Part shown: positions 28,190 to 51,041 of the stretch, piece after piece
How the letters are laid out: every line of letters begins with the position of its first letter
Position numbering within the stretch: position 1 is the stretch's first letter
Source of the DNA: an uncultured bacterium
Lineage (GTDB): Bacteria > Bacteroidota > Ignavibacteria > Kapaibacteriales > UBA4661
DNA: 64,000 bases
Direction of reading: 5' to 3'
Assembly (NCBI GenBank): GCA_937899715.1
Contig: CALCNX010000049.1
Coordinates: 66,602 to 130,601 of the forward strand
Notes under the pieces: generated by a model
Database searches by the model: none
Seen by the model: only the letters and a program-made list of their open reading frames with translations
What the model was told of the DNA's origin: nothing
Translations under genes and position numbers: made by a program

Positions 28190-30382
28190 CTAGCCTGTAA
28201 CGACAACGACATTTTCAGCATGGTCGTTGAACGCAGGCAATTCAGACTGCCCGGTGGGCGGAGCTTCAGCGACGATGGCAATGACCGTCATATCGTCGTG
28301 CTGCGGCATTCCTTCGGAGAATTCGGAGACGCGGCGAACAACCTCGCCCACCACGAAGCGGGCTTCGGGATTTTTTTGCATAAGCACGCCGTGCAGTGGC
28401 TCCATGCCAAATTCTTCTTGCTGGGCGTTCATGGCTTCATTCACACCATCGGTGAAAAGAAGGCACACGTCTTTGTAGCCCATCGGGACACGAATTTCTT
28501 CCATAAACTGGCGGAATTTCGATGCTTCTGCCAGTGCCACGCCAACACCTTTAGGTTGAAGAAGGCGTATTTTCCCGTTGTGCGAAAGTGCAATGGGCGT
28601 GTGTCCGGCGCGGGCAATAACAAGCTCGCTATTCTCTTCATCAATCGCCACAGCAGTCATAGCAATATAAGAACCACGCTCAATGTTGCCCTTCAGTGCA
28701 GTATTGATGCGGCAAAGAACATCTTTCGGCGACTCGCTTTCACTTGCCACCGCGAGTACAACGCCCTTGAGCTCTGCCATATAAAACGCAGCCGATATGC
28801 CCTTACCGGACACATCGCCGATAATAACGCAGTTCATGCCGTTTTTCAACTTCACGTAATCGTAGTAATCGCCGCCGACTTCCAGTGCAGGCGAGGTGTA
28901 CGCTGCAATATCGAATTTCTTCAGTTCCGGTTGCTGCTTCGGCAGGAGCTTGTGCTGCATTTCGCGGGCAAGCAGCATCTCGCGTTTGAAGCGCTCCTGC
29001 TCCAGAGAGTTCTCGAAGAGCCGGACGTTTTCAATGGCAATACTAATGTTATTGGCAAAAGCAGAAAGAAGCGAAATATCTTCGGTTTCAAAGAGAAATT
29101 TATCACGGTGCGCTGCAAAGAGTGTCCCAATGCGCCTATTATCCAGCGTAAGCGGCACGGCGATAAGCGATTGGGCAAAATCGCGGGCGTAAGGGTAAAT
29201 AGGCACAAATACAGGCTCTTCGTCGAGCGCCTCGAAGTGCATTGCCTGTGCGCCCTGCTGCGCAAGAAGCGCTCTCAGAACACCGTCTTTGTACAAGATT
29301 TGCAGCTCTTGTTCGGAAATTTTAAGCTGCGAAGCAATCTTCATAGTTTTGCTCTCGCCGTCTTCCAGCTCCACCCACGACGACGTAGCACCGCAAACAT
29401 CGCGTATCATGGTGGTAACAATTCCTAAGAGTCTTTCCAAATCATAGACCTGCGAGATAGTGCGGCTCAAATATGCAAGCGAGCGCACTTCATTGATTTT
29501 CCTGTCCACCACTGCCGCCGTTGGCAGTGCTAGCCCAATAGAGAAGGCAATGCGCAGAAAGAAAATCGCAGAGATAAGCGAGGAGAACATAGAGAAATTA
29601 CGTGCTCCGGGCAGCAGGTTCTCCATGAACTGCACAAACTGTTCGGTACTTTCTTGGCGAAACATAAAGGTAATACTGATGGCAAGTGCGATAGAGGCAA
29701 TGCCAAATGCTTTCCACTTTTGATCGCGGCTGAAGGAAGAAATCCACGAAATACGCGAGGATGATACAAGCAGCAGCATACCTAAAATCGCCAGCCCGAT
29801 AACAACGCCAAAGGTCATATCTATTTTCGTCACGACCGAGAAGACTTGCATGACGACAAGTAAAATCCCAATCACGAGCGCAATAATGCGGAACTGAGCA
29901 GTAAAAGTGGTACGACGAATCTGAATGAGCACATCCAGCCATTGCAACTGACGGACAATTACCGCCACAAATAACAGCGCTGCGACGGATATACCAAACC
30001 GCACCAGAACGTCGTCGCCAAGGCGCAGATGGTCGCCGATAAGCAGCGATACGGCGAGCATAGCTACGGTGGTGACAATAACGAACATTCCGCCTTGCTT
30101 CAGTTCAGCAAAAGGCTTGGCAACGGATATGATTTGCGGGTCGTCGCTTTCGCGGAGAATAGGAAAGGTCGTGGCAAAAAGCCCGCCGAAAAGCGCAGCA
30201 ATCGTAATTTTGAGAAGTGCCGTAAACCCCAGCGAGATATTATGTAGCAACGAACCCTCTTGCGCCAGAAAAGCAGTATCAACAAATGCCATCAGCGCAG
30301 CACACAGAACTATTGCCGCTAAAGCACCAGTGTACCGATGAGCGCCAAGGCTGCCGAATAAACGTTTGAAAAAGTGTTTCAT
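28190..30382 (-). CDS. Membrane-anchored PP2C/SpoIIE-family serine phosphatase with a GAF domain (RsbU-like)
   Basis: About 8 N-terminal TM helices, a central GAF-like region, and a C-terminal PP2C (DVSGKGISAAFYMAEL...LLFTDGVNEA...HDDMTVI). Confidence 0.8.
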   Translation of the reverse strand: MKHFFKRLFGSLGAHRYTGALAAIVLCAALMAFVDTAFLAQEGSLLHNISLGFTALLKITIAALFGGLFATTFPILRESDDPQIISVAKPFAELKQGGMFVIVTTVAMLAVSLLIGDHLRLGDDVLVRFGISVAALLFVAVIVRQLQWLDVLIQIRRTTFTAQFRIIALVIGILLVVMQVFSVVTKIDMTFGVVIGLAILGMLLLVSSSRISWISSFSRDQKWKAFGIASIALAISITFMFRQESTEQFVQFMENLLPGARNFSMFSSLISAIFFLRIAFSIGLALPTAAVVDRKINEVRSLAYLSRTISQVYDLERLLGIVTTMIRDVCGATSSWVELEDGESKTMKIASQLKISEQELQILYKDGVLRALLAQQGAQAMHFEALDEEPVFVPIYPYARDFAQSLIAVPLTLDNRRIGTLFAAHRDKFLFETEDISLLSAFANNISIAIENVRLFENSLEQERFKREMLLAREMQHKLLPKQQPELKKFDIAAYTSPALEVGGDYYDYVKLKNGMNCVIIGDVSGKGISAAFYMAELKGVVLAVASESESPKDVLCRINTALKGNIERGSYIAMTAVAIDEENSELVIARAGHTPIALSHNGKIRLLQPKGVGVALAEASKFRQFMEEIRVPMGYKDVCLLFTDGVNEAMNAQQEEFGMEPLHGVLMQKNPEARFVVGEVVRRVSEFSEGMPQHDDMTVIAIVAEAPPTGQSELPAFNDHAENVVVVTG

Positions 30383-30693
30383 TGTGATTGCTCATTGCAA
30401 AAAGTGTTCGCTAATGGACACTACTACGAAGGCTCGTGTGGAAAGTTTCTCGAAAAGTGCAGTGAATAATTCTTACTTCAAGAACGCTGGGGTTCTCTCC
30501 AACAACCATGACGAGAAATTAGGTAACAACATTCTGAACACAAACCAAACCGGGATTTTGGGGGATGAAGAAGATGATTGAGATTGGGTAGGTGATTTCC
30601 GATAGTGTTTAAGTTTTGGGTGTTAAATTCAAAAGTCATCAACCAAGAATCTCTCAGTATGCTGCTGCTCATCCTTTATACTTCGGCTTCTCC

Positions 30694-31230
30694 TTAGTTC
30701 ACTGGCAGAAAGACCGACTGAGCAAGCATGGTAATACGCTTTTGGTCGCCCTTGATTTTTTCAACCTCTGCCTTGCTTTTTCCGGCATCCTCAGCATGAT
30801 GACGAGCATCGCTTTCAGGAATGATTTCTTCGGTTACAAGTCCTTCGGCAATGATTGTTTTTCCTGCGATGTCCTTAGGGACGAAAAAACCGTCGTCCTT
30901 GAAGGTAACGCGCACCATAGAACTACCATCGGTCAGCATCATCCAACAACCTCTTTTCTGGCAGACTTCTGTCACCTTTGCCATGACGCGCACAACATTT
31001 GTCTTCGAGGGCGATTTCATCGCATCGGCAAGAGCAAGGGGTGGCGAAGTGGACTGCACGGAATCACCAAAAGCCTTGTATAAGGGGGCTTGAGACTTTG
31101 CCGTCTCTTGTGCGGCGGTCTGCGCGGCTTTGTTTTCGGCAGATTGTTTTCCACAGCCAAAAGCAAGTAGGGAGGCGAGTGCTCCGGCGAGAATGAGAGT
31201 ACGGTTCATAACGAGCGTCAAGTCAAACAA
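30694..31230 (-). CDS. Hypothetical lipoprotein
   Basis: MNRTLILAGALASLLAFGC-GKQ lipobox. A conserved CQKRGCWMML segment. No family named with confidence. Confidence 0.5.
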   Translation of the reverse strand: MFDLTLVMNRTLILAGALASLLAFGCGKQSAENKAAQTAAQETAKSQAPLYKAFGDSVQSTSPPLALADAMKSPSKTNVVRVMAKVTEVCQKRGCWMMLTDGSSMVRVTFKDDGFFVPKDIAGKTIIAEGLVTEEIIPESDARHHAEDAGKSKAEVEKIKGDQKRITMLAQSVFLPVN

Positions 31231-31257
31231 TCAAAAAAATAGTGGGTTGCTTTATTG

Positions 31258-32025
31258 TCAAGCAGTTTTTTCTTTCGGCGCTTGCTTGCGCGTAACCCGC
31301 GCAATGACGATACTGATTTCGTAGAGAATATACAAAGGGCAAGCAAAAATAAGCTGGTTAATCGGGTCGGGGCTAGGTGTAATGACGGCAGCTATAAACA
31401 AAATCGCAATAATCGCATGGCGGCGGTATTTCCGCATCATAGCTGCTGTCACGAGTCCAATAGAAGAAAGAACAAATGTAATCATGGGCAGTTCAAAAAT
31501 CAGTCCCGCGCCCAAAATGGTCATTATCATAAAGCTGAAATACTCGCCAATGTCAATAATGTTCTTGATGTTCGCCGTCCCAAAACTCACCGTGAACTGC
31601 AGCATACCCGGAATCATCACGAAATAGGCAAATGACACCCCAAGCATAAAGCAAATCGTTGTCAGAGCCGTAATGCGCCCCGCCCAACGCCGTTCGTGTG
31701 CATATAAGCCCGGCTCAATAAACTTCCATAATTGATACATTACAATCGGAAATGCAACAACCAAACCACTGACTAAAATTACTTTCACGTAGAGAAATTG
31801 CTGCCCAAAAGGACGAAGATTCTGCAACTCCAATTTTGAAGTAACAGCAGGCTTGAGCAAAATGAGGTTCATAATGTCATTCACGAAATAGCCTGCGCCC
31901 ACGCAGCCCACCAAAATAGCCAATACTGCTTTGAATAATCGCCCACGAAGTTCTTCCAAATGCTGAAAGAAGCCTTGTTCGTTGTCATTGGGATTGTGTT
32001 CTATTCCGGCTTTGTTGTCGTTCAT
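31258..32025 (-). CDS. tatC: Twin-arginine translocase subunit TatC
   Basis: FQHLEELRGRLFKAVLAILVG and six TM helices. Confidence 0.85.
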   Translation of the reverse strand: MNDNKAGIEHNPNDNEQGFFQHLEELRGRLFKAVLAILVGCVGAGYFVNDIMNLILLKPAVTSKLELQNLRPFGQQFLYVKVILVSGLVVAFPIVMYQLWKFIEPGLYAHERRWAGRITALTTICFMLGVSFAYFVMIPGMLQFTVSFGTANIKNIIDIGEYFSFMIMTILGAGLIFELPMITFVLSSIGLVTAAMMRKYRRHAIIAILFIAAVITPSPDPINQLIFACPLYILYEISIVIARVTRKQAPKEKTA

Positions 32026-32079
32026 ACAGAGAAAAAATGGTGTAGTCTCAGATTCAGATTACGTTGAATTGAAGGGTAA

Positions 32080-32781
32080 TCATCGCTGCACAATGTCGCC
32101 AATAGCCACACTCACGGGAAACATTGCCTGCACTGCCGCGTCGTGCGTGATGGTGAGTATGCTCGTTCCTTCGTCGTGTGCCAGTTCGCGCATAGTGTCT
32201 ATGACTGTCCGTGCATTGCGGGCATCAACGCTGGCGGTTGGTTCGTCGGCAAGTACCAATGCGGGCGTGTTCACAAGCGCCCGTGCCACCGCGACGCGCT
32301 GCTGCTCGCCGATGGAAAGTTCGCGCGGGCGGCGGTGCATTTTTTCCTTCAGCCCAAGCCGTGCAAGCAGCATCGTGGCGCGTTCTTCAGCATTGTTTTT
32401 TTTACCCGCAAACATTGTGGCGGCGAGAACATTTTCTCGTGCGGTCAAGCCTTGCAAAAGATTAAATGTTTGGTAAACGCAGCCAACGTGTGCGGCGCGA
32501 AATCGGTCGCGCTTTGCCTCAGACAGTGTTGTAATGTCGGTGCCGTTCAGCATGATTGCACCCTCGTCGGGCGTAATTATCCCGGCAATGAGATTCAGCA
32601 ATGTCGTCTTTCCTGACCCGCTTTCGCCGACAATGACCATTTCTGAACCTTTGCTTAATGTAAACGTAGGAATACGCAGCGAAAAAGAGCGCTCTGCATC
32701 CGATGATTCCTTGCCCACAGGCTTATCCGAGCCGAGACGCTTTACGACATTCTGCAAATGAAGAAGGCTCATAATTGACAA
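32080..32781 (-). CDS. ABC transporter ATP-binding protein (LolD/FtsE-like)
   Basis: Walker A GESGSGKTT, signature LSIGEQQRVAVARAL, Walker B LVLADEPT, H-loop ITHD. Confidence 0.85.
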   Translation of the reverse strand: MSIMSLLHLQNVVKRLGSDKPVGKESSDAERSFSLRIPTFTLSKGSEMVIVGESGSGKTTLLNLIAGIITPDEGAIMLNGTDITTLSEAKRDRFRAAHVGCVYQTFNLLQGLTARENVLAATMFAGKKNNAEERATMLLARLGLKEKMHRRPRELSIGEQQRVAVARALVNTPALVLADEPTASVDARNARTVIDTMRELAHDEGTSILTITHDAAVQAMFPVSVAIGDIVQR

Positions 32782-32828
32782 AAGCTGATTCGTTAGAGAG
32801 GGTTCGGATTGGGAAATTATGCTTCGCT

Positions 32829-34307
32829 TTACAAAGCCACTTGAGCCTGCATGATAAATTCAGTTCTGGTTTCTTGGAAATTCCGTGATGCGTCATAAAC
32901 AGGACGACCACGATAGTGGAAATTCAATCGTGCATTATGACCTTCCAAGAACCAATTAAAACCTGCTTCAGGCAAAATATAGGGCTGGTTCAGTGCCTCA
33001 AAGCTGCCGTAGGTAGCCGCTACATATGGCTGAATGCGGGTGTTGCTGAAAATACCATCGTTTAACAGTTTCACTCGTCCCGGAAAGACATAACCAATTT
33101 CCGTATATGCGCCGTGTCCTGTGCCAATAAGCGGATAAGCATTGCCGCCGCCATTAAATGAATTTGGCGAGCCGGCAACAGCGCGGACACTGGTGACGGG
33201 ATTCATAATGCCGATGTTGCGAATGTAATTTGGTCCCATAGAATAATTGTAGTATGCTGCATAGACGGTAAGCGCATCGGGGTCTTTTCCCGGCTGTAGA
33301 GGCAAGTCCATGAAGAAATCTGCCGCAAGTACCCGATAATCAGTGTTGGTGGTGTCATAGCGGCGTGTCGAGGTGTTATATTTATTTGTCCACATTCCAT
33401 TGGGCTGGAACTGGAAGCCCACACCAAGATTTAAGACTTTTTTTGTCCCGACGTATGTACCTATCATAAAAGGCAAGGTGCGATTTTCTTTGTCCCAGAA
33501 TTCATACGCCACATAGCCCTTCAACTCGCCTGTAACCTGGTTCGGAGAGTAATTACTTGCCGCCCGTGTGGTGTCGCGGGTGAGATTAGTAAAAGCATTG
33601 TTAATACCAATACGAAAAGGCATATCAAAAGCAAACGTATAATCAAAACCAAGCGCTTTACCCTTGACGTATGTGCCAATCATCCGTATAAACTGGTCTG
33701 TCGCGTCAATAGTAGGCCAGCCAAGAATCGGCGAGTCATTTGCCATATAGTTGATAGTGCTGCTCATGCTCATACGCGATAGTCCCGTCCAATAGTGCAT
33801 TCCGAATCCCCAGAACAAGCCGTCATCGGTGGGCGTATTGCCACCTGCCACACGTAATTCACCATAAATATCGTGGAAAAAGATTTGCGGCTTTTTCGCA
33901 CTGGCATTTGGGTCAACCGTTGTGCCGGGAGCACCTACGCCACCGGTGGATTCGGTTTGGTTGTTGATGCCTAAGTGCATCAGTACCAAAAAGTCTTTAT
34001 CTATCTGCGTGTGCAGGAGGAATCGGGAGCGACGTATGCCAATATCGAACGATGTGGGCGTAGCAGCCTCTTGTATGTAAGAATTAGGGTTGTTCTGCAA
34101 ATAGCGGAACCAGATTTGATGCCACGTCAGAAAGCGAATATAGCGCGAGCCATCGTCGTTGAGCTTAATACGAATACCTGTGCCATAGATGTCACTCCCT
34201 TGTGCCGAAGCGGATAAAGGCAGCCACGCCAGAGCGCTGACAATAAGTACCACACCAAGAACGATCTGCACAACCGAAGTTTTGAAAGCGTATCGAAATC
34301 TGTTCAT
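32829..34307 (-). CDS. Hypothetical outer-membrane beta-barrel protein
   Basis: From ATG 34307: MNRFRYAFKTSVVQIVLGVVLIVSALAWLPLSASAQG signal peptide. Alternating amphipathic beta-strand pattern rich in Y/G/N/T. No family named. Confidence 0.5.
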   Translation of the reverse strand: MNRFRYAFKTSVVQIVLGVVLIVSALAWLPLSASAQGSDIYGTGIRIKLNDDGSRYIRFLTWHQIWFRYLQNNPNSYIQEAATPTSFDIGIRRSRFLLHTQIDKDFLVLMHLGINNQTESTGGVGAPGTTVDPNASAKKPQIFFHDIYGELRVAGGNTPTDDGLFWGFGMHYWTGLSRMSMSSTINYMANDSPILGWPTIDATDQFIRMIGTYVKGKALGFDYTFAFDMPFRIGINNAFTNLTRDTTRAASNYSPNQVTGELKGYVAYEFWDKENRTLPFMIGTYVGTKKVLNLGVGFQFQPNGMWTNKYNTSTRRYDTTNTDYRVLAADFFMDLPLQPGKDPDALTVYAAYYNYSMGPNYIRNIGIMNPVTSVRAVAGSPNSFNGGGNAYPLIGTGHGAYTEIGYVFPGRVKLLNDGIFSNTRIQPYVAATYGSFEALNQPYILPEAGFNWFLEGHNARLNFHYRGRPVYDASRNFQETRTEFIMQAQVAL

Positions 34308-34340
34308 ATCAAATCTCCCTAAAAAGATGAAAGTGAATAC

Positions 34341-34466
34341 TATAGGACTTTCGCAAATAGCAAAAACGAACATGATTGGAGTGCGGAATTTTAATTCCGC
34401 AACGTATTTCTCACGAAACAGCGGAATTAAAATTCCGCACTCCCTGTTTTTTGCGAAAGTCCTATA
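34341..34466. repeat. 126-bp composite palindromic element containing two copies of GGAGTGCGGAAT-N-ATTCCGC (copy 1), in the promoter/5-prime region of the OMP gene
   Basis: Arms ggagtgcggaattttaattccgc (34378-34400) and gcggaattaaaattccgcactcc (34421-34443) are exact reverse complements. Each arm is itself palindromic. Outer arms tataggactttcgcaaa / tttgcgaaagtcctata add a further 17-bp stem. Confidence 0.7.
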
Positions 34467-34619
34467 CTAGTTAGGTCAAAAGCTGACGCGCGGACTGAAA
34501 CTATTCGGAACAAGAAGCCCCGCAATCTAGGGAAAATGTTGTATTGATACAAGCAAAAATGCGTGATAAGGGTGCGTATAAGAAGATAGTAAAGTTCGAA
34601 AAATTAGAGAGTGTAAATT

Positions 34620-34748
34620 GTTTTGTGTAAACTTCCCTCACCCAACCCTCTCCCAGAGGGCGAGGGCTTCAGAATAAATTGATTGTTCTTGTCTTCGCTC
34701 CTTCTCCCTCTGGGAGAAGGCGGGGGATGAGGGCTGTTTACACAAAAC
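34620..34748. repeat. Imperfect ~47-bp inverted repeat pair separated by 33 bp (MITE-like or structured-RNA-like)
   Basis: Left gttttgtgtaaacttccctcacccaaccctctcccagagggcgaggg. The reverse complement of the right arm is gttttgtgtaaacagccctcatcccccgccttctcccagagggagaagg, about 80% identical. Confidence 0.55.
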
Positions 34749-34812
34749 TCTGCACACTCTCCAAAATTAGTGGTGATGCTCTATGCCAATATGCAAAAAC
34801 TTGTCCGAAACG

Positions 34813-34949
34813 GTGTGTCAGAACAAAGTGTCAGATTTTTTCTTGCACACTGTCAGAAAAATCTGACACTTTTTATGGGAGTAGCTGTGGAAAATGTCTT
34901 AAAAGTGTCAGATTTTCTGCCCAATCATGCCCAAAAGTGTCAGGTTTTT
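34813..34949. promoter_or_regulatory. Array of five GTGTCAGA(T/A)TTTT motifs including a perfect 18-bp palindrome TGTCAGAAAAATCTGACA, a candidate regulator binding-site cluster upstream of the giant gene
   Basis: Sites at 34813, 34826, 34850-34867 (palindrome), 34903 and 34936. Confidence 0.45.
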
Positions 34950-34953
34950 CTTC

Positions 34954-35008
34954 TGGCACATCCTTTGTAATAGTCTCCTCTGGATAAAAGAATGCACCAA
35001 GGGCAGGG
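34954..35008 (+). promoter_or_regulatory. Two weak sigma-54-like -24/-12 candidates (TGGCAC-N5-TTGT at 34954-34968, TGGATA-N5-ATGCA at 34991-35006)
   Basis: The first matches the full -24 hexamer but has GT instead of GC at -12. The second obeys GG-N10-GC. Neither is a perfect consensus. Confidence 0.2.
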
Positions 35009-35184
35009 ATGTCCTTGAAGGTTTTTGTACTGTGTTGGGAGATGTATAGCTCATCTCCTCGCAGAAGCGGCGGTTGACAGTGTCCGCCCGCACCAACAAA
35101 AGCACCTACAACACTGTTTCGCCTCAAAACACCACCCCTTTATATAATTTACTTTTTTTCCATACTTAAAGGAGTAGTACATAA

Positions 35185-38100
35185 ATGAATTTTGTACTAG
35201 CACAATTGCGTCGCTCCACAAGCGCTTTGCTTGTTGCGTTGACTGCATTTCTTTTGGTAGCCCCTGCTTTGGTCTATGCGCAGTCAACTGCGGATTCCCA
35301 AGTTCAGGGCGAGAGCCGAGATTTCCGCTCGACTCGTAACGGTCGTTGGGTGGACTTGTCCACATGGCAAGTCTATCGCTCAGGCGTCTGGATTGCCGCC
35401 GGACGTGAAGTTGGTGTGCCTAACGGCGCGAGTAACGTTTTCATCGAAACAAACCACACCATTGTGGCTACCCGCGCTGTGCAGGAAGCTATCCAATGGA
35501 ACGGTGCGCAAGCATGGGCGTTCCTCGAGGTAAATAACCTGCATATTAACACTGCTGCGTCTATCACGACGACCTTCGGCAGTTCCAGTATCTCAGGTTT
35601 TACCTATGATGCTCTTGGTAACAACCTCGACCGTTATGACGGCGATGGTAATAGCCGCGCTGCTGTTCTCGGTGGTTCACCGAACTTAGGCAGTGTGAGC
35701 ACATCATTGAGCCAGTTCTCTCCGGTTGCCGGCGGTGTTAATCCGCTTCCCGGTGGTACACTTGGTGGTTACCCGTTCAACCGTATCGGTAACATGGACG
35801 TGTTCTCACCCCAGAACTTTTTGCTTGAGCCGTCGGGTGGACAAGTTCCTACCCCTCGCAACATGGAGTTGCGCGTGTATGGTAAACTCCGCTATTATAC
35901 TGGTAGGGCGTTCGACAAAACCGACCGCTCTGCGAATATCCAAGTGACTGCTGCTACTATCGGTACTGGTTCGACTATTGTTTTCCGCGGTATAACTCGT
36001 ACGATTACATCTCCGGAAGAATGGTCAACCACACTTGCTACACAAACAGGTCGTTTCGACAACACAGCACAAACTGCTGCGTTAGGTTCTGCTGGTACAG
36101 CTGGTGGTTTCGGTTTGCGTTTTGATGACGGTTCGGGTAATGCCGCAGCTGTTAGCCAGGCGCGTATCAATAACTTCCGTGGCTTGATGGGACGTAACTC
36201 GTTCTGGACAGCTGTGTTCGACCTTGGTCGTGTTGTTGACCGTAACTTCTCTGTTGACCAGTTCACTGGTCCGACAGACGATCCTTCGACTGCTATTGGT
36301 ACTCTTCGTGGTAACTTTACCGCAGGTATCATTCAGGTTCGTCGTGGTACAGTTCGTTTTGAAGGTCAGGCGCTTCTTGCAAACGAAGGTGCTCCTACGT
36401 CTGGTTCTATCCAGATTATGAACAACGCTGTTTTGCAAGTTGCTTCTGGTAATATCGGTCGTACTGCTGTGAATCTTTCGCAGTTTGGTAGCCGTTTTGG
36501 TGGTACCTCAACGATTGACCTTTATGGTAGTGGTAATCCTTACCAGCCTGTTCAAACAGACTTGACAGGTAATCCTAATGGTGGTGCTACTCGCGCAGGC
36601 TACTTCTCGCAAACTCCGTCGGGTACATATGGGGTAACTTCCCGTATGCGCTACTTCGTAGTTGAAGAAGGTGGCGCTCTTGATTTCGTTGGCGCTGTTG
36701 GTTCACTTAGTGCTGCTGACGTTCGCTTCAACGGTACGGTTATCTATTCACGTACAGGCGATCAAACGCTTGTTGGTGATTCCCCATTCTTGTCGTTTAA
36801 CCCTGCAGGCACAATCGTCGGTGGCGCTGCTGCTGGTGGCGTTACACTTAATGGTACTGGCGCTGCTGCTGGTACTGGTGGTGTTACCATTAATGCAGGT
36901 GAAAATGGCTTGTTTGACCCGTACAATAATAACTATAATGCTAATGCTGGTGTAACTGCTGCAGGTACTACATGGGCGGGTGATCCTCGTCCGGGTACTA
37001 TTAATGACTTCGGTACAGCTCCATCCGGTCTTGGTGTAGGTACGGCTGCTCTCTTCCAACCTTCCACGACGGCTGCTTACAGCCACCTCGTGTTGCGCGG
37101 TACAGGCACCAAATTCCTCATTGCTACGACTGTAACAATCTCACGCGCGCTCATCTTCCAAGGTGAAGCACGTATGGGCATCCAAAACGTAGCGGGCGAC
37201 GGTACTGTTATCACCATCAACGGTGCTAACCTTGCATCAGGTCTTCCATACTACTTGCAACAGCCTATCGCAGGCGAGTTGGTTGCTAATGACCCTGTAA
37301 GCGGTCGCACGGTTTCACGTGCCGGCTACTTCCCGACATTGGTATATCTTCGTGGTACAGGTTTGACCGGTTTCCGCCAGGAAAACAATATCGGTACAAC
37401 ATTCCGTGGTACGCTTTCAACCGCTACGACTCACACTGAAGCGGATAGCGATCCCGTCAGTGGCGCTCAAGCACAAACGATGTGGTCGGTTTACGGTGGC
37501 AACACTGACCCGGTTATCTTCGTAGGCTTCACGACCGCTTCTACCCGTCCTATCATCTACGATCAGGATATGTACCCAGAAGGTGCTTCCTATCCTATCG
37601 GTATGGTGCTTGCTGGTTCTTTGAACCGTGAGCAGCTTGACATGAGCCCATGGAACAAGCCTGGTGTTGTTCACGGCTTGCCTGCTGAACCGTCATACGA
37701 CGGTAATACTACCGCTATCGGTGATGGACACGGTTCTTCATTCCGTGGTTACACATATACGTCCACAACCCGCTCGCAAACACTTGACGGTGTTCGCACC
37801 GGTCAGGTTATTCGTCAAACTGTTGACCGTGTAAACGGTACCGGCAGCCCGATGACCTTCCCGACCGTTGGTATTGCTAACGTTGCCGGTGTTAACGGTG
37901 GTAACATCATCCGTAACTTCCCGGTTATCACCAATAGCATCCATGACTACGCTATCAATACAAGCGCAACCACAACGTTGCAGTATGACAGCGAAGCGTC
38001 CGATATTATGTCGCAGATTGAGTTCCCGGCTGGTGTAACAGGTCCTCACAACCTTGTGATGAACTGCGCATCGAACGTATCACAAACTCTGCCGATTCGT

Positions 38101-41100
38101 ACCGTTGACTACCGTGGTTTCGACCAATCTGGTATCAACTGGGCTAACGTTGCTGAATTGAACTTCATCAACAAAACCTCAGGTTTGTTCGGTGCTACCG
38201 CAGGTACGATTGTTCTTGGTCCGGAGTATGTGAACTCCACCAATGCAAACTTGCCTCGTAACGCATTCAGCCCTTCGACTGGCTTGTATCAAGCAAGTGC
38301 TATTTACAACCAATCAGGCATCGGTTTGACAAACACGCCGGGCGTTTTGGCTTCAGCATATGTTGATACCCGCCCAGACGTTGCGATTACATCTGCAAAA
38401 ATCAATGACAACTATTATGTCACTGGTGTAGGTGTTCGTCCTTCGGTTTCTCTTACCGGTACCTTCGACGGTCGCGTTCGTGTTGGCTTCCCGACACAAC
38501 GTGTTGTTGGTCCGACCTACCTTAACGGTGGTCAAGCTGCGTATGTTGTTTCCGGTTGGAACAGCGGCGCTCTTCCGCTTGGTCAAAACTCACAAGGTCT
38601 TGCTCAAGACTTCGGTCGTCGTGGTGACTACAATAACTTCGGTGTTGTAGAGCTTCGTCGTGGTAACTTGAACATCCCGAATCGCAATCTTACGTTGAAT
38701 GTTGGTAGTGTTGCCGCTCCGGTAACAGGTACCTTCAACTACTTGTTCGTTCTTTCGTCAACAGCTATCGTCTCGCCTGACCAAGCAAACGTTACGTTCT
38801 TGGGTCAACGCGTAGGTGCTAACAATGCTGCGGCTCAAGTTGTTCTCTCTGAGGCTACTGGTGCTGAGCAATATCCGAGCTTCACCCAGTGGGCAGCAGC
38901 AGGCGTTCGTAACGCTGCGGCTAACCCTGGCGTAGCAGCTCCTGCTGTTATTCGTGGTCCTTCCGGTCCGGCAAACCTTGCTGGTACAATTGTTGGTGGT
39001 TCGCTCTCCAATATCGTCTTCACAGGCGGTACAGGTGGAACCATTGATGGTTCATTCCTTGCATCAGCTCGTAACGGTGGCAGCTCGTCTGTCAACGCAA
39101 CTGGCGCTGCAAATGCTACCTTCACCAACGGTAACGGTCCTCAGCCCGTACACTATGCTGCAACAGACAATGCGAACTCTGGTCTTACCGAGCTTTCGGT
39201 TGCTACCGGTATTCCTGGTCTGCAGGCATTCTCACCGAGCTATGTTCCAAGCATTACTGGTGTTCCGACATCAGCAGCTTCGAACCCATTCCCTAATACG
39301 GCAGTTTCCACCCATCGTTACAATGCAGGTCCTGAGATGACCAGCGATGCTGACGTTACGTTGGCTTCTATCGTTTACGGCGCAGATGCTATTTCTAACC
39401 AAACAGCTCTCGCTGCTGGTATTCAGTCCGGTAACAATCAGGTTTATCCTAACGGTCCGAGCTTGATTACCAATGCTGGTCACACTTCGTCATCATACAA
39501 TGCAGGTATTGTTCGTGCTAACAACGCATGGAACATTGACCTTCCATATGTACGCAGTGGTCTTCAGCACGTAACGTTCCTCCGCGCTACCTCGAACGTC
39601 ATGACGCTCGTTGGTAACTTGGACAACAGCACGAACAATCCTGGTGGCAGCCCGAACGGCATTGACGCACCGGGTCTTACGACTGCTAAACCGGAACTTT
39701 CCGGCTTGCAAGTGTACGGTACAATTGCAACCGCTCGCGGTGATATTGACCTTAACGGTCGTAACATCGAGCTTGGTGGCAACAACTCCATGCTTGTAGA
39801 AGCATTCGAGCGTACACAGTATGTTGACTCCATCGGTGGTCGTCCACGTTGGACAGCTATCCAAGTTGGTATGCCTCGTGGCTTCTCGAACGGTAACATC
39901 AACGGTATCGCTCCTGGTCAGTGGACAAATGGTGTTGTAACAGCACCGTACCGCACCGGCGATCCGCTTCCTGTTTACCCGACCCGTCCGTCATCGGTTA
40001 TCAACAACCACCGCGAAGTTCGCGCGTATATTGGTCTCACCTCTGGTCGTAACATCCAGCCGATGAACCAAAATCTTGGTATCAACCAAGTAAACGAGAA
40101 CCCCGCTGGTCTTGGCGCGTACATCTACCAAACAGCAAACCCGGCTCAGTTCCGTGTTCGTCGTTGGCAGACACGCGGTAACGGTCTTAATGGTGCGCTT
40201 TCGACCCGTCCGGGCGTTCGCACAGCTGACCGCTACTGGCAAGTAGAAACCACCGGCACCATGGCTGTTATCATGGGTCGCTCGGAGATCCGCCTGCAAT
40301 ACATCGATACCGACCTCAACAACGAGAACGGTACGACTTCAGGTCTTCCTCCGGCATCCTTGAATATGTTCCGTGCTCAAGGTCAACCGCTTATTGCTCC
40401 GAACTCACCGTTCATCGGTCCGTTCCAAGCACTCTTCGCTCAACAACTTGTTGGTTTGGATTCCTATAACTTCGTGAAAATGCTCACGATTACTGGCGAT
40501 CGTCAAACAGTAAACGGTGCAACCGTTCTCAACACTGGTAACTTTGCAACCGGTGATCCCGCAAGCGGTCGTTTGCCGGATGCAACCAACCCGCAAAACC
40601 CACAAGCTGGTTTCCAAATCTGGGCTATCGGTATTCCTGCTCCTCGTTGCTTGGTGCTTCGTGGTCAGCGCTTCGGCGGTACCTTCGGTGACCCAATTGG
40701 TAGCGGCTTTGGTGTAGCTGCTGGTCAAGATATTCTTGGCTTCCCGCCTCCATTCGGTTCATTCGCAACCGGCGGTGGTATCAGCACAGCTACTGCTAAT
40801 CAATTTGGTACCATCATCGGACCGTTCAAAGCAGGTTATGCTACGAACGCAACGATCGTTGCAGACCTTCTTGACGAGTTTGGTAACGTTGCTACGACGA
40901 ACTTCTCCACAGGCGCTTCGCTTGTAGTTGGTCAAGTAAGCAATGGTACTCTTGGTCCATGGAATACCGGTGTACCGGCTCTCTTCCAAGGCACAAATGG
41001 CTTCCCGTCAGGTCGCATTGGCGCACTTTCGGGTAATGGTGGCTTGACAGCAAACGCTACTACGGGTGGTCCCGTTGGTGGTCGCTTTGAGTGGCCGAAC

Positions 41101-43965
41101 GTCCGTCTTGACGGTGTGGCTTCGACAACAGTTACCTTCACCTTGGTGAATGACTTCGTTGGCGATGCAACCCAACTTGGTGCTTCCGTTCTTCCGCGTC
41201 TCGACGCGCAAGTAGTGGCAGCAAACGGTGGTTCATTTGCTCTTCCGGTTGCTAACCCAACCTCCACGATTACCTATTGCGATAACCAAGCAGTTCAGGT
41301 TTCGCTCCAAGGTGGTTTCCCATTCAGCGTAACATTTGCTACGCAAAATGCTAACAACACTGGTGCAACGAACCTCTATCCTGGTTCTGTTGGTCCGATG
41401 GCCGCTCCTGGTCGCGTCGCTGCTACTCCTGGCATCGCTACTTCCGGTTATGACGGCTCTATCCCGACAAACCTCACCGGTATTCCGACAAACGGTGTTG
41501 TTGTTGGTCAGACGGTAACATTCCCATATGCTACTCCTGGCTTTAGCAGCATCACGGTTATCGTAAAAGACCGATTCGGTAACTTTGCTTCCTTCCCGAC
41601 GACAGCAACGATTTCTATCGCTGGCGGTTCGCCACCAGTTGATCAGCAGCGCACACCGCTCGTTGGTCAAGTTGCAAACTCAACGGTTGTTTGGGGCTTA
41701 GGTAACCTTGGTCTCGAAACAGCTGGCGCTCCTCAACTTGCTGCACCGGGTATTGCTCGTGTGTACGGTCCGGGCGGCGATGGTCTGACGCAACCTGCAC
41801 AAACAGCACAACAAGTAAACCCTGCGAGCTTGCCAACAGGCACAAGCCTGCTTAATAGCCGCGCTTCACTTGTTTCGCCAGCACTTGCTCCGACCGGTTC
41901 GGGCTATGCTCCGTTCAACAACCCACAAGTTGCTTCGCACTTGGCATCGTTCCCGAACTTCCAAATTTGGGGCGCTACCTCGAGCAACGTAACACTCGTT
42001 GTTTCTTCGACAAACTTTGATCCGAACGCTCCGATTGGTCTTGGCGCTCCGGGCAACACATCGGCTACGATTCACATCGTTCCGGCTGCTGCTATCGGTA
42101 TCGCTCCGGTTATCGTTCCTGATATCTATAACCGTAACCAACCTGACCGTATGCCGTCAAGAATGTACATTGGTCGCTCAAATAACAGCGATCCTCGTAC
42201 ATGGTTCTATGTTCAAGCTGTTGACCAATTCGGCAACCGCGTTGACAATGGTCCGAACGCATACAATGGCGGTACTGCAAACATTACCTTCCGCACGCCT
42301 CAACAAGGCTTGCCTGGCAATGCTGCTGGTACATTCCAGTTCACGCAGACAACCCCTGCTGATCCGTATGTGAAAGCAAACAACCAAGCATATGCTGCGA
42401 CCGGTACATCCGCTCCGGCAGTATTTGGTCTGTACACCTTCAACAACTTTATCCCAACCGGTCCGGCTTCCATCGATCCGCTTGGTAAAGACGTTGTTCT
42501 GACCTTTGAAGACCTTGCGCTTCCAGGTGTACGTGCTCCGCTCGCTTCTGGTGCTACCGGACTCTTCCGTCCGATCCCGCCGGTAACGACTGCAACGACG
42601 ACCTTCTTGCCTGTTCCGCGCGTGAGCTTCTCCGTGCCGGATGCTGGTCAAGCTGGCGCTCCTGCAAACGGTGCTTCTAAAGTTGGTACAAACGTTCTCG
42701 TCCTTGACGAGCGTGCTCGTACCTACATTAGTGGTAACAACACCCTTGAATCTGGCTCACTTCGCGTAAGCCGTGATCCGGGTCAAGTTGCAAACGACAT
42801 CGCAGTTGGCTATACCCTTACCTACTTCAATGCAGCAAATGCAATTGATGCTAGCGGTCGTGTAGTTAATCGTGCTGGTCTTTCGGTTCTTCCGAACATT
42901 GGTACAACCGTACTTCAGCTTCCGGCTCCGCTTCCGGCAGGCGTGGTGGCAACACCTGCTTTCCCGGCTCCGACCCCGGTAGCTATCAATGGTCTGCAAG
43001 GTGACTTGTCGCCTAGCACAACCCCTGCGGGTCGTCCGCAATCCACGGTCAACGTAACAGCACCGGGCGTACCGGGCACGTTCTTCTTGGATGCAGGCGT
43101 ATCGCAACAGCTTGTTAACTTCACAGCTCGTTATAGCGATCAATCATGGGCACGCAATCCTGGTATCCAAGGTCCGCGCGTTGCGGTCTTGAACCTCTTG
43201 CCGCCTGATGCTCAGAACGCAACCATTTATGACGTAGACCGCACCAATGGTGTTGATTCTGGTTTTGTAGTTCTTCTCGACCCGGCAGCAGTACCACCGG
43301 TAATTACCAACGCGATCCAAGACAAACAACTCTTGCGTCCGACCGGTACCGCGCCAACAGAAGACCGTATCGAACTTGAGTCGCCACAATGGCGCCCAGA
43401 TAACGTTCCAGGCTTTGTATTCTATGATGACAACTACAATCCGATGACGTACACCGCTACATCATCCGATCCGACCGTTGTTTCTGTACGTGTACGTGCT
43501 TTGGATTCGACCGTTCAGAATGGTACTGTTGATCCTCGTCCGACCTTGTACTATGCAGTACAACCGGGCGCGGCAGTTGGCGCAAACGTAGTAATTACTG
43601 TTGTTGCTAGCGATGGTACAACGCAAACCGACGGTCAACGTCGTCTTGCTACCGACCAATTCAACGTAACTGTTCGCAATAGCATCACCAGCGTAGCTGT
43701 TGATCCTGCTGCAATCGGCTTCAGCGTATCGCCGAACCCGACAGTTGAACGCTTCACCGTACAAGCAAAAGCTGCAAAAGCTGGCACAGTTCGCGTGAAT
43801 GTTGTCAATATGCTCGGTCAAGTGGTTCGCTCGGTCAACTTTGAAGTTGGCGCAGGCGAAGTTTACAGCCGTGAATTCGATATTGCTAACCTTGCAACAG
43901 GTGCTTATACCGTTCAAATCAATGACGGTGTTAGCGCTTCTGCAATGAAAGTTATCAAAAACTAA
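35185..43965 (+). CDS. Giant (2926 aa) secreted surface protein with a type IX secretion system C-terminal sorting domain
   Basis: Signal peptide MNFVLAQLRRSTSALLVALTAFLLVAPALVYAQ. G/T/N/A/S-rich composition throughout, with no TM. The last ~80 aa (VSPNPTVERFTVQAKAAKAGTVRVNVVNMLGQVVRSVNFEVGAGEVYSREFDIANLATGAYTVQINDGVSASAMKVIKN) are a typical Por_Secre_tail/T9SS CTD. AAGGAG precedes the start. Confidence 0.85.
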   Translation: MNFVLAQLRRSTSALLVALTAFLLVAPALVYAQSTADSQVQGESRDFRSTRNGRWVDLSTWQVYRSGVWIAAGREVGVPNGASNVFIETNHTIVATRAVQEAIQWNGAQAWAFLEVNNLHINTAASITTTFGSSSISGFTYDALGNNLDRYDGDGNSRAAVLGGSPNLGSVSTSLSQFSPVAGGVNPLPGGTLGGYPFNRIGNMDVFSPQNFLLEPSGGQVPTPRNMELRVYGKLRYYTGRAFDKTDRSANIQVTAATIGTGSTIVFRGITRTITSPEEWSTTLATQTGRFDNTAQTAALGSAGTAGGFGLRFDDGSGNAAAVSQARINNFRGLMGRNSFWTAVFDLGRVVDRNFSVDQFTGPTDDPSTAIGTLRGNFTAGIIQVRRGTVRFEGQALLANEGAPTSGSIQIMNNAVLQVASGNIGRTAVNLSQFGSRFGGTSTIDLYGSGNPYQPVQTDLTGNPNGGATRAGYFSQTPSGTYGVTSRMRYFVVEEGGALDFVGAVGSLSAADVRFNGTVIYSRTGDQTLVGDSPFLSFNPAGTIVGGAAAGGVTLNGTGAAAGTGGVTINAGENGLFDPYNNNYNANAGVTAAGTTWAGDPRPGTINDFGTAPSGLGVGTAALFQPSTTAAYSHLVLRGTGTKFLIATTVTISRALIFQGEARMGIQNVAGDGTVITINGANLASGLPYYLQQPIAGELVANDPVSGRTVSRAGYFPTLVYLRGTGLTGFRQENNIGTTFRGTLSTATTHTEADSDPVSGAQAQTMWSVYGGNTDPVIFVGFTTASTRPIIYDQDMYPEGASYPIGMVLAGSLNREQLDMSPWNKPGVVHGLPAEPSYDGNTTAIGDGHGSSFRGYTYTSTTRSQTLDGVRTGQVIRQTVDRVNGTGSPMTFPTVGIANVAGVNGGNIIRNFPVITNSIHDYAINTSATTTLQYDSEASDIMSQIEFPAGVTGPHNLVMNCASNVSQTLPIRTVDYRGFDQSGINWANVAELNFINKTSGLFGATAGTIVLGPEYVNSTNANLPRNAFSPSTGLYQASAIYNQSGIGLTNTPGVLASAYVDTRPDVAITSAKINDNYYVTGVGVRPSVSLTGTFDGRVRVGFPTQRVVGPTYLNGGQAAYVVSGWNSGALPLGQNSQGLAQDFGRRGDYNNFGVVELRRGNLNIPNRNLTLNVGSVAAPVTGTFNYLFVLSSTAIVSPDQANVTFLGQRVGANNAAAQVVLSEATGAEQYPSFTQWAAAGVRNAAANPGVAAPAVIRGPSGPANLAGTIVGGSLSNIVFTGGTGGTIDGSFLASARNGGSSSVNATGAANATFTNGNGPQPVHYAATDNANSGLTELSVATGIPGLQAFSPSYVPSITGVPTSAASNPFPNTAVSTHRYNAGPEMTSDADVTLASIVYGADAISNQTALAAGIQSGNNQVYPNGPSLITNAGHTSSSYNAGIVRANNAWNIDLPYVRSGLQHVTFLRATSNVMTLVGNLDNSTNNPGGSPNGIDAPGLTTAKPELSGLQVYGTIATARGDIDLNGRNIELGGNNSMLVEAFERTQYVDSIGGRPRWTAIQVGMPRGFSNGNINGIAPGQWTNGVVTAPYRTGDPLPVYPTRPSSVINNHREVRAYIGLTSGRNIQPMNQNLGINQVNENPAGLGAYIYQTANPAQFRVRRWQTRGNGLNGALSTRPGVRTADRYWQVETTGTMAVIMGRSEIRLQYIDTDLNNENGTTSGLPPASLNMFRAQGQPLIAPNSPFIGPFQALFAQQLVGLDSYNFVKMLTITGDRQTVNGATVLNTGNFATGDPASGRLPDATNPQNPQAGFQIWAIGIPAPRCLVLRGQRFGGTFGDPIGSGFGVAAGQDILGFPPPFGSFATGGGISTATANQFGTIIGPFKAGYATNATIVADLLDEFGNVATTNFSTGASLVVGQVSNGTLGPWNTGVPALFQGTNGFPSGRIGALSGNGGLTANATTGGPVGGRFEWPNVRLDGVASTTVTFTLVNDFVGDATQLGASVLPRLDAQVVAANGGSFALPVANPTSTITYCDNQAVQVSLQGGFPFSVTFATQNANNTGATNLYPGSVGPMAAPGRVAATPGIATSGYDGSIPTNLTGIPTNGVVVGQTVTFPYATPGFSSITVIVKDRFGNFASFPTTATISIAGGSPPVDQQRTPLVGQVANSTVVWGLGNLGLETAGAPQLAAPGIARVYGPGGDGLTQPAQTAQQVNPASLPTGTSLLNSRASLVSPALAPTGSGYAPFNNPQVASHLASFPNFQIWGATSSNVTLVVSSTNFDPNAPIGLGAPGNTSATIHIVPAAAIGIAPVIVPDIYNRNQPDRMPSRMYIGRSNNSDPRTWFYVQAVDQFGNRVDNGPNAYNGGTANITFRTPQQGLPGNAAGTFQFTQTTPADPYVKANNQAYAATGTSAPAVFGLYTFNNFIPTGPASIDPLGKDVVLTFEDLALPGVRAPLASGATGLFRPIPPVTTATTTFLPVPRVSFSVPDAGQAGAPANGASKVGTNVLVLDERARTYISGNNTLESGSLRVSRDPGQVANDIAVGYTLTYFNAANAIDASGRVVNRAGLSVLPNIGTTVLQLPAPLPAGVVATPAFPAPTPVAINGLQGDLSPSTTPAGRPQSTVNVTAPGVPGTFFLDAGVSQQLVNFTARYSDQSWARNPGIQGPRVAVLNLLPPDAQNATIYDVDRTNGVDSGFVVLLDPAAVPPVITNAIQDKQLLRPTGTAPTEDRIELESPQWRPDNVPGFVFYDDNYNPMTYTATSSDPTVVSVRVRALDSTVQNGTVDPRPTLYYAVQPGAAVGANVVITVVASDGTTQTDGQRRLATDQFNVTVRNSITSVAVDPAAIGFSVSPNPTVERFTVQAKAAKAGTVRVNVVNMLGQVVRSVNFEVGAGEVYSREFDIANLATGAYTVQINDGVSASAMKVIKN

Positions 43966-44010
43966 TTGATGAGGCTTTAACGCTTCATCTGTTAGTTCTC
44001 ATAACAGGTA

Positions 44011-44055
44011 AAAAACAGCACCGTACTCTTTGGGTACGGTGCTGTTTTGTTTTAT
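44011..44055 (+). terminator. Rho-independent terminator of the giant gene
   Basis: aaaaaCAGCACCGTACtctttggGTACGGTGCTGttttgtttt has a perfect 11-bp stem plus a T-run. Confidence 0.75.
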
Positions 44056-44073
44056 ATTGGTGGCATACAAATC

Positions 44074-44147
44074 GGAGTGCGGAATGTATTCCGCATCAAG
44101 TATGTCTGCGAAGTATGAGAAGAGAGGCGGAATAGATTCCGCACTCC
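44074..44147. repeat. Second copy of the GGAGTGCGGAAT-N-ATTCCGC double-palindrome element, immediately upstream of the AlbA_2 regulator gene
   Basis: ggagtgcggaatgtattccgca (44074-44095) and gcggaatagattccgcactcc (44127-44147). Same termini and half-sites as the element at 34378-34443. Confidence 0.7.
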
Positions 44148-44170
44148 AGACAGTCAAATCAATTTGCACC

Positions 44171-44830: not shown

Positions 44831-44872
44831 GAAGTGCTACTGAAAGGATTAAAGTGAGGACTTGCACAATTT

Positions 44873-46264: not shown

Positions 46265-46375
46265 GGACTTTGGAAATTACGAATGAGGAATTGCGAATTA
46301 TGAAGTGCCGCCAAGAAGCGAGGCATCAATCCACACGAAGTTACTATCTTTGAGGCTTGTATGCAATGGTAAAAA

Positions 46376-48186: not shown

Positions 48187-48220
48187 AAAGCCCGTAAAGA
48201 AATCTTTACGGGCTTTATTG
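48187..48220. terminator. Rho-independent terminator downstream of the 48239-48667 gene
   Basis: aaaGCCCGTAAAGAaatTCTTTACGGGCttt. Confidence 0.7.
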
Positions 48221-48238
48221 TTTAGGCTGAAAGTAGAA

Positions 48239-50349: not shown

Positions 50350-50361
50350 TTTTCTCATTTT

Positions 50362-51006: not shown

Positions 51007-51041
51007 TTTCGTCATTCTTCATTCGTAATTCGTCATTGACT

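Follow-up and report, generated by a model that had tools for sequence, protein, structure and literature searches.

What controls the expression of a giant surface-protein gene in an uncultured member of the Kapabacteria is the question raised by the locus described here. The gene lies in a 64-kb stretch of contig CALCNX010000049.1 (hereafter the window) and encodes a protein of 2926 aa, the sole recognized domain of which was a C-terminal sorting domain of the type IX secretion system (T9SS). An exact database look-up of this protein returned no record. Upstream of the gene, a cluster of short TGTCAG sites precedes a sequence that resembles a sigma-54-type -24/-12 promoter. Comparison with orthologous loci showed positions 34846-35017 to be the predicted control region of this T9SS-cargo gene, and the region was genetically linked to a gene pair encoding a PAS kinase and an NtrC-type regulator. 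It is considered likely, at a probability of about 0.7, that a sigma-54 promoter and upstream sites for an NtrC-family activator control the giant gene. The same architecture had been put forward in an earlier reading of the window (the original prediction), and it was supported by conserved sequence islands, the distance of the enhancer, a covarying hairpin, and the linkage to a regulator that carries the GAFTGA motif.

The TGTCAG Array

Six TGTCAG cores were located within positions 34816-34943, on the plus strand at 34816, 34829, 34851, 34906, and 34938 and on the minus strand at 34863-34868, and the window as a whole contained 28 TGTCAG/CTGACA hexamers. Six cores per 140 bp corresponded to a Poisson probability of approximately 7e-11 for one 140-bp stretch and of approximately 3e-8 after correction for all stretches. 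The heptamer TGTCAGA showed no enrichment across the window (9 found vs. 6.6 expected), and it is therefore the clustering that is significant. Allowing for one mismatch at most, the 13-mer GTGTCAGAWTTTT had four copies (34828, 34857-34869 on the minus strand, 34905, and 34937) and no further match in the window. The full repeated unit comprised 16 nt, AAAGTGTCAGATTTTT, and was found at 34825-34840, 34902-34917, and 34934-34949 on the plus strand and at 34857-34872 on the minus strand. The original prediction had described five copies of a half-site; the cluster stood, and its count was corrected to four good copies and two degenerate ones. The central pair, initially reported as a perfect 18-bp palindrome at 34850-34867, is indeed an inverted repeat, which is located at 34851-34868 and consists of 7-bp arms (TGTCAGA/TCTGACA) about a non-palindromic AAAA (7-N4-7).

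In approximately 288 kb of Kapabacteria DNA, consisting of the 64-kb window and approximately 224 kb of relatives, TGTCAG-N6-CTGACA was found nowhere except upstream of giant-gene orthologues. A metagenome scan for the 18-mer TGTCAGAAAAATCTGACA listed at least 120 matches. BLAST of the listed matches on both strands indicated similarity to the region over just 21-42 nt, many of them being longer unrelated hairpins, and no -24/-12 pattern was detected near the plus-strand matches that were checked. The 18-mer by itself is not diagnostic, and the metagenome scan yielded no regulon members.

Other interpretations of the cluster were rejected. The open reading frame (ORF) at 34679-34987 (102 aa), which spans the cluster, was not regarded as coding because conservation is restricted to short islands with indels of 2, 3, and 10 nt. 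The inverted repeat was not read as a terminator, as there is no upstream gene to end and identical single sites exist without dyad symmetry. An assignment of the array to a dispersed palindromic repeat or a miniature inverted-repeat transposable element (MITE) was dismissed, given that no other copies occurred in the window or in the related loci.

Conservation of the Upstream Region in Four Lineages

The upstream region was compared among four lineages, namely the window, L013 (GCA_049241505.1), L136/L137 (GCA_025455065.1), and L146/L147 (GCA_033578975.1). L013 was obtained by a search with the N-terminus of the giant protein, which returned two giant-gene orthologues only and missed L136 and L146; L136/L137 and L146/L147 were obtained via the linked regulator. 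A short contig close to L136, L014, covers the proximal 185 nt only, and its positions 1-23 consist of Illumina adapter sequence (CCTACACGACGCTCTTCCGATCT), an assembly artifact at the contig end. The giant proteins were 67-73% identical across lineages. Where known, the upstream neighbors differed: the window has a porin gene at this place, L013 a TonB_C gene, and L146 a gene of 416 aa on the same strand. The homology with L013 started exactly at 34846, the left edge of the inverted-repeat block.

Conservation was concentrated in islands. Identity across lineages amounted to 24-29 of 29 positions in the inverted-repeat block, 12-16 of 17 at site 3, 31-33 of 37 in the segment containing site 4 and the promoter, and 17-22 of 22 in the hairpin segment, as against 1-7 identical positions in spacers of 15-26 nt (approximately 10-25%). 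The invariant columns of the four-way alignment were TGTCAG...CTGACACTT, AAA-TGTCAG-T (twice), TGGCA-AT--TTTGT, GGATA, and AATGCA. Within the inverted repeat, the arms were fixed in the four lineages, and the 6-nt center between the cores varied (AAAAAT, GCAAAT, or GTTTTC). Judged from this alignment, such a combination of fixed arms and a free center fits a binding site.

The arrangement of the sites was also constrained. Relative to TGGCA, the sites of the window start at -103 (plus), -91 (minus), -48 (plus), and -16 (plus), and those of L013 and L136 lie alike at -91, -79, -38, and -16. The distance from site 3 to site 4 was 32 nt in the window vs. 22 nt in L013 and L136, which represents an indel of 10 bp, or one helical turn, whereas the last TGTCAG started 16 nt before TGGCA(C/T) in all lineages but L146, where the distance was 17 nt. 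On the aligned sequences, this geometry is the signature of protein-binding sites that are held on one helix face, and it is highly probable that the TGTCAG sites are protein-binding cis-elements.

The two distal sites of the window fall outside the block that can be aligned with L013. In their place, the relatives had TGTCAA, a degenerate version of the site, at 14 nt upstream of the inverted repeat, and L146 additionally harbored GTGTCAGA. Directly upstream of the inverted repeat, L013 contained two tandem units of approximately 108 nt (9390-9600) with CTGACGAGG and GTCAGACGGGAAAC-like strings; no significant Rfam match was found in the L013 upstream region, including these units, and the matches obtained were to hairpins below threshold.

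The Predicted -24/-12 Promoter and the Leader

The first of the two sigma-54-like candidates proposed earlier, TGGCACatcctTTGT at 34954-34968, was located as described. It is intergenic, correctly oriented, and situated 217 nt before the giant-gene start codon, with GG at 34955-34956, GT at 34967-34968, and the exact 10-nt spacing between GG and the -12 dinucleotide. TGGCA(C/T)-N5-TTGT was present in all four lineages, and the spacer and the C/T behind GGCA were the only parts to change; in this alignment, the predicted promoter varies solely where sigma-54 promoters tolerate change. The pspF-pspA intergenic region of Escherichia coli K-12 contains the sigma-54 promoter of pspA, TGGCACGCAAATTGTA (TTGGCACGCAAATTGTATT), which has the same TGGCAC-N5-TTGTA. 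The element at 34954-34968 is very probably a promoter of the sigma-54 type, with a predicted transcription start near 34980. The second candidate, TGGATAaaagaATGCA, had been placed ten bases off, at 34991-35006 instead of 34981-34996, and was rejected because its internal spacing shifted by 1-3 nt in the orthologues. The conserved GGATA...AATGCA at this position is probably the 5' end of the leader.

A search for TGGCA[CT]-N5-TTG in 231 kb of Kapabacteria DNA identified TTTG in seven of seven intergenic matches vs. none of ten intragenic matches; two further sites in L146 were read by eye and are not counted in the seven. The restriction of TTTG to intergenic matches supports a real promoter class with a variable -12 base in this lineage, where TTTG-N may take the place of TTGC as the -12 element.

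A short hairpin at 34998-35017 begins approximately 18 nt after the predicted start. In a register-corrected comparison, eight of eight pairs were kept in four sequences, and seven pairs had changed on both sides in some lineage. In L136, two pairs had changed in a compensatory manner (A-T to G-C and G-C to A-T), and L146 contained an entirely different 8-bp stem and tetraloop, AGAAGTAG-AGTC-CTACTTCT, displaced downstream by one base. The pairs include one G-T, a combination that counts as standard pairing solely in RNA of the plus strand. Single-fold shuffle z-scores were weak (-0.15 to -1.8), and it is therefore covariation, not folding energy, that carries the argument. The preservation of pairing through compensatory changes makes it probable that transcription of the region starts at the distal promoter. 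Because no T-run directly follows the hairpin, it was interpreted as part of the 5' leader and not as a terminator. A search of positions 34000-35600 against Rfam 15 returned only sub-threshold matches to microRNA-type hairpins, and none at gathering score.

The Linked Regulator and Kinase

The presence of a NtrC-type activator and its PAS kinase downstream of the giant gene was confirmed, both on the minus strand at 44873-46264 and 46376-47569, respectively. The regulator matched the Pfam domains Response_reg, Sigma54_activat (1.3e-71), AAA_lid_14, and HTH_8. Its scores were below the NCBIfam equivalog cut-offs for NtrC (439 vs. 558.6 bits) and PEP_resp_reg (410 vs. 502.6 bits); as no equivalog cut-off was reached, it is treated as a member of the NtrC family without assignment to a subtype.

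The 3' flank of the giant gene is visible in three lineages, namely the window, L136, and L146, and the order of giant gene, AlbA_2 gene, regulator, kinase, and, further on, an M28 peptidase gene was kept in all of them. At the DNA level, window positions 34851-51808 were collinear with L136. The regulator was paired with the PAS kinase in four loci (the window, L136, L146, and L140), which constitute one subgroup, and the giant gene was present in three of these four. A second regulator subgroup (L138, L139, L142, L144, and L148) had neither the kinase nor the giant gene adjacent. Differences in recognition-helix specificity between loci with and without the giant gene were sought, but the helix is invariant, and this comparison of loci is consequently uninformative. 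Since the regulator stays linked to the giant gene, it is the best candidate binder. The protein that binds the TGTCAG sites is somewhat more probably an enhancer-binding protein than anything else, and the specific identification with the adjacent regulator is tentative, at slightly less than even odds. The AlbA_2 gene is possibly a co-transcribed partner of the giant gene or encodes an alternative DNA-binding candidate.

Proposed Mechanism and Alternative Explanations

According to the proposed mechanism, sigma-54 RNA polymerase would bind TGGCAC-N5-TTGT as a closed complex, and a dimer of an NtrC-family protein would bind the TGTCAGA-N4-TCTGACA inverted repeat, which is centered approximately 120 bp upstream of the predicted start in the window and approximately 108 bp upstream in L013 and L136, i.e., at the usual enhancer distance (80-150 bp). 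Further subunits would be recruited to the single TGTCAG sites (centers at approximately -74 and -42), and the A-tract and T-tract DNA around each site may aid bending. The oligomer would contact sigma-54 via GAFTGA and use ATP for promoter opening. The transcript from approximately 34980 would carry a leader of approximately 205 nt, with the conserved stem-loop first and the conserved ribosome-binding region last. The likeliest activator would be the adjacent regulator, phosphorylated by the PAS kinase, and the giant surface protein would thereby come under a two-component signal.

Several observations weigh against this mechanism. The -12 dinucleotide was GT and not the canonical GC in all four orthologues; this deviation, which had already been pointed out in the original prediction, also occurs in the sigma-54 promoter of E. 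coli pspA. T, G, and A were all found at the -12 position among the lineage's candidate promoters, and TGGCAC-N5-TTGC with one mismatch was not enriched in the window (9 found vs. 7.2 expected). No rpoN gene was present among the ORFs checked in the window. Site 4 lies just 16 nt before the -24 element, nearer than enhancer sites of the classical kind, and this position would also suit a repressor. Proteins closely homologous to the regulator (72-86% identical), with an invariant recognition helix, occurred without a giant gene nearby, and no TGTCAG inverted repeat was detected in the flanks of the regulator loci that lack the giant gene; the giant gene therefore cannot be the only target of this regulator family. 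Moreover, a second sigma-54-like promoter beside the kinase is preceded, at approximately 100 bp from its TGGCAC, by CTGAGA-N7-TCTCAG, an inverted repeat unlike the TGTCAG motif.

Some of these observations would suit an explanation in which the promoter is of the sigma-54 type and the TGTCAG sites are bound by another regulator, such as a repressor or anti-activator, the AlbA_2 protein, or an architectural or bending protein, and the true enhancer-binding protein would act in solution or at another location. In all four lineages, site 4 directly adjoins the -24 element (16-17 nt from start to start). Sites 3 and 4 form direct repeats at a distance of 22 or 32 bp, an arrangement more reminiscent of regulators that bind in tandem; the giant gene has the AlbA_2 gene as its other invariant neighbor; and close homologues of the regulator occur without the motif nearby. 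However, the inverted repeat approximately 100 bp before the -24 element occupies a classical enhancer position, arrays of strong and weak NtrC sites that reach approximately -45 are known from glnAp2, and a domain search identified no recognizable helix-turn-helix in the AlbA_2 protein, which leaves another binder an unlikely explanation. A different origin of the transcript, from a housekeeping-sigma promoter near the TATAAT-like box, would reduce the distal block to a separate small transcript, a terminator, or a distant operator. The box (TATATAATTT) was found at 35141-35150 as originally reported; the surrounding proximal 116 nt were 74-84% identical across lineages, TATAAT is present in the window and L014, and the inverted repeat, with the T-run behind it, looks like an intrinsic terminator of low strength. 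Nevertheless, the box itself was poorly kept (TATAATTT, ATCAATTT, TTTAATTA, and TTTAATTC across lineages), reading ATCAAT in L013 and TTTAAT in L136 and L146 with loss of the key A at position 2. Of the Bacteroidota housekeeping promoter (TTTG at -33, TAnnTTTG at -7), no conserved TAnnTTTG was found and TTTG was not common to all lineages, and a consensus sigma-70 scan of 34300-35300 detected no site. The covarying hairpin at 34998-35017 implies an RNA that starts upstream of it, and no convergent upstream gene needs a terminator, as the neighbors diverge or differ. A housekeeping promoter is thus quite improbable as the origin of the giant-gene transcript.

The remaining explanations concern the nature of the repeats themselves. 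TGGCAC could be a degenerate inverted TGTCAG half-site (TCTGGCAC vs. TCTGACAC), in which case the whole array would be an operator acting on another promoter. GTGTCAGG-N7-TCTGGCAC forms an imperfect inverted repeat, detected as an 8-pair hairpin, and the -24 flank is one base off the half-site in the window and L013. This is highly improbable, as the flank in L136, TTTGGCAT, has 3-4 mismatches to the half-site while TGGCA and, 5 nt later, TTTGT persist; TGGCAC-N5-TTG recurs at an unrelated conserved promoter without TGTCAG sites; and the spacing is N7 instead of the N4 of the true inverted repeat. That a mobile or dispersed palindromic element left the repeats behind as remnants with no regulatory role could be suggested by their location at a synteny breakpoint, in an intergenic region that also contains two dispersed palindromic repeats. 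Yet the only copies of the TGTCAG unit in the window and the approximately 224 kb of relatives were those that precede giant-gene orthologues, it travels with the giant gene into different neighborhoods, and conservation is specific to the sites while the spacers are free. Such remnants are therefore an extremely remote explanation, and sigma-54 control through an NtrC-family activator remains the preferred one.

A Second Predicted Promoter and a 380-nt Unit Beside the Kinase

A second sequence of the same type, TTCTGGCACAACCTTTGG in the window, was located upstream of the PAS kinase gene and corresponded to TGGCACGACCTTTGA in L136 and TGGCATAATCTTTGG in L146; it was of the TTGG/A form in these three lineages. 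It heads a unit of approximately 380 nt that lies directly upstream of, and co-directional with, the PAS kinase/regulator operon. No conserved ORF and no Rfam match were found in this unit, which ends in a long hairpin and a T-run (47640-47720). The stem covaried between lineages, and the C-rich loop, ACCCTGCATCAAACAAACCCTCC (ACCCUGCAUCAAACAAACCCUCC), was invariant. From these features, the unit is a candidate for a sigma-54-dependent structured non-coding RNA or a long regulatory leader. A motif common to the giant-gene enhancer and the inverted repeat upstream of the second promoter was sought and rejected, because there is only a weak TCAGA resemblance and the spacing is different. It is doubtful, although conceivable, that the locus forms a self-contained sigma-54 island, in which the PAS-kinase/NtrC-type pair would be flanked by TGGCAC-N4-TTTG-N promoters that drive the 2926-aa T9SS protein and the approximately 380-nt RNA.

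Between a 142-aa gene (48239-48667, minus strand) and the second promoter, positions 48181-48222 contained a hairpin with a perfect stem, AATAAAGCCCGTAAAGA...TCTTTACGGGCTTTATT, which had sub-threshold Thr_leader matches in Rfam and is probably a bidirectional terminator.

Locus Setting and Neighboring Genes

The positions of the features are listed in Table 1.

Table 1. Positions of the predicted regulatory features and associated genes (window coordinates unless a lineage is named).
Feature	Position	Strand	Description
Two distal TGTCAG sites	34812-34840	+	GTGTCAGAACAAA (34815) and full unit AAAGTGTCAGATTTTT (34825-34840)
Core enhancer element (predicted)	34846-34874		CACAC-TGTCAGA-AAAA-TCTGACA-CTTTTT; inverted repeat at 34851-34868
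Third site	34902-34917	+	AAAGTGTCAGATTTTC; AAA-TGTCAG-T invariant in four lineages
Fourth, promoter-proximal site	34934-34949	+	AAAGTGTCAGGTTTTT
Sigma-54-type -24/-12 promoter (predicted)	34954-34968	+	TGGCAC-ATCCT-TTGT (TGGCACATCCTTTGT); conserved in L013, L136, and L146
Second -24/-12 candidate (rejected)	34981-34996	+	TGGATA-N5-ATGCA (TGGATAAAAGAATGCA)
Leader hairpin	34998-35017	+	CAAGGGCA-GGGA-TGTCCTTG; 8-bp stem, tetraloop
Proximal leader block	35069-35184	+	GCGG...CCGC hairpin, CAACAC-GTTT, CTCAAAACACCA, AAAGGAG ribosome-binding site (35168-35174)
Giant gene	35185-43965	+	2926 aa; C-terminal T9SS sorting domain; gene under the predicted control
AlbA_2/Schlafen-domain gene	44030-44830	+	Directly after the giant gene; L136 11396-12055, L146 11417-12076
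NtrC-family response regulator	44873-46264	-	REC, AAA+ with GAFTGA at residue 220, HTH_8
PAS histidine kinase	46376-47569	-	Paired with the regulator at 44873-46264
380-nt unit (approximate length) headed by the second promoter	47625-48031	-	L136 8201-8612; L146 8243-8618
Second sigma-54-like promoter	48017-48031	-	Upstream of the PAS kinase; TTCTGGCAC-N5-TTGG
Intergenic TGGCA[CT]-N5-TTG sites	34954, 48017		L013 9747; L136 8201, 21273; L146 8243, ~20820; L139 17925

To the left, the giant gene is preceded by a divergent porin gene (492 aa), the real start of which is at approximately 34307. The spacer between the two genes is approximately 877 bp long and composite. L002 and L004 shared the porin-side block of the spacer, of 92 nt (34479-34570), at 93-95% identity, and L007 retained part of it; the block is probably the porin promoter or 5' leader. 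The two dispersed palindromic repeats within the spacer, at 34338-34469 and 34604-34764, have copies elsewhere in related genomes. The former is a nested palindromic element just upstream of the porin start, with outer arms of 25 nt and perfect inner arms of 23 nt; it was missing at the orthologous site of L004 but was found at L004 15465-15580, which identifies it as a dispersed repeat of the MITE or repetitive extragenic palindromic (REP) type. The latter is an imperfect inverted repeat with 61-nt arms and CCCTCTCCCAGAGGGCGAGGG-type sequence and represents a second dispersed palindromic repeat family, with copies at L004 5435-5527 and L138 5751-5842.

A porin-based search identified relatives with 79-89% identical porins, none of which had a giant gene beside the porin or the TGTCAG motif. 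Since both are absent beside the porins of relatives, the TGTCAG array coincides with a synteny breakpoint and has no relation to the porin side of the spacer. The block at 28263-34341 comprises the genes for the porin, an ABC ATPase, TatC, a DUF4920 protein, and a SpoIIE-GAF phosphatase, and its porin-side neighbor varied among relatives, corresponding to window position ~23400 in L002 and L004 and ~12250 in L006 and L007. This comparison indicates inversions or rearrangements of the porin block, with the breakpoint apparently within the spacer at 34342-34845.

Comparison with Known Systems and Significance

The architecture is a textbook one, closest to those of E. coli pspA and glnAp2; it represents an ordinary mechanism and not a new kind of system. 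The sigma-54- and PspF-dependent pspA promoter shares the core TGGCAC-N5-TTGT-A with GT at -12, its activator sites are located upstream of the promoter, and its activator gene is nearby, as are the predicted sites and the candidate activator gene in the window. PspF, which has no receiver domain, is under the control of PspA; the candidate in the window is a two-component response regulator. Neither the sequence of the binding sites, nor the organism (Kapabacteria), nor the target (a giant T9SS cargo) is related to its counterpart in the pspA system. The activator of glnAp2, NtrC, is a response regulator with REC, AAA+, and Fis-type helix-turn-helix domains, which is the make-up of the regulator in the window. 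The strong dyad site of glnAp2 is approximately 17-18 bp long (7-N3-7, compared with 7-N4-7 in the window) and lies more than 100 bp upstream, and its weaker sites reach toward approximately -45, as in the window. The half-sites differ (TGCACCA vs. TGTCAGA). In contrast to glnAp2, the window contains only one clear dyad together with single sites, the target is not a nitrogen gene, and the regulator scored below the NtrC cut-off.

Sigma-54 governing the cell exterior is an established general idea (PMC3162934). PEP-CTERM/exosortase systems with the PrsK/PrsR two-component pair are reported to connect a class of surface or exported proteins that carry a sorting signal with a histidine kinase and an NtrC-type sigma-54 activator (PMC1569441). 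The window differs from that system in having a T9SS C-terminal domain, one giant gene instead of a family of small proteins, and a regulator below the PEP_resp_reg cut-off. The Vibrio LuxO/Qrr system resembles the window in that an NtrC-type regulator gene adjoins a sigma-54-type promoter heading a non-coding RNA-like unit. However, the unit in the window is approximately 380 nt long, compared with approximately 100 nt for Qrr, lies co-directionally upstream of the kinase gene, and has no Qrr sequence similarity and no Rfam match.

The new details are the motif, the lineage, the non-canonical yet conserved -12 element, and the giant T9SS cargo as a target. The literature searches did not retrieve any work in which T9SS cargo is controlled by sigma-54. 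To our knowledge, transcription signals have hardly been described in Kapabacteria, and the same applies to the regulation of T9SS cargo beyond a few cultured Bacteroidota. The non-coding unit headed by a sigma-54-type promoter is the most promising lead toward something less ordinary; if the locus is a self-contained island, it would represent a LuxO/Qrr-like protein-plus-RNA circuit that controls cell-surface display in an uncultured Bacteroidota lineage. If sigma-54 control of the giant gene is true, the locus would provide a testable activator-binding motif, TGTCAGA-N4-TCTGACA with additional single sites, and a lineage-specific sigma-54 -12 element consisting of TTTG followed by any base. 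The PAS kinase would then be a signal-transduction handle on the expression of the giant surface protein, and the conserved cassette of promoter, leader hairpin, and gene could be used to find the remaining regulon in complete metagenome-assembled genomes.

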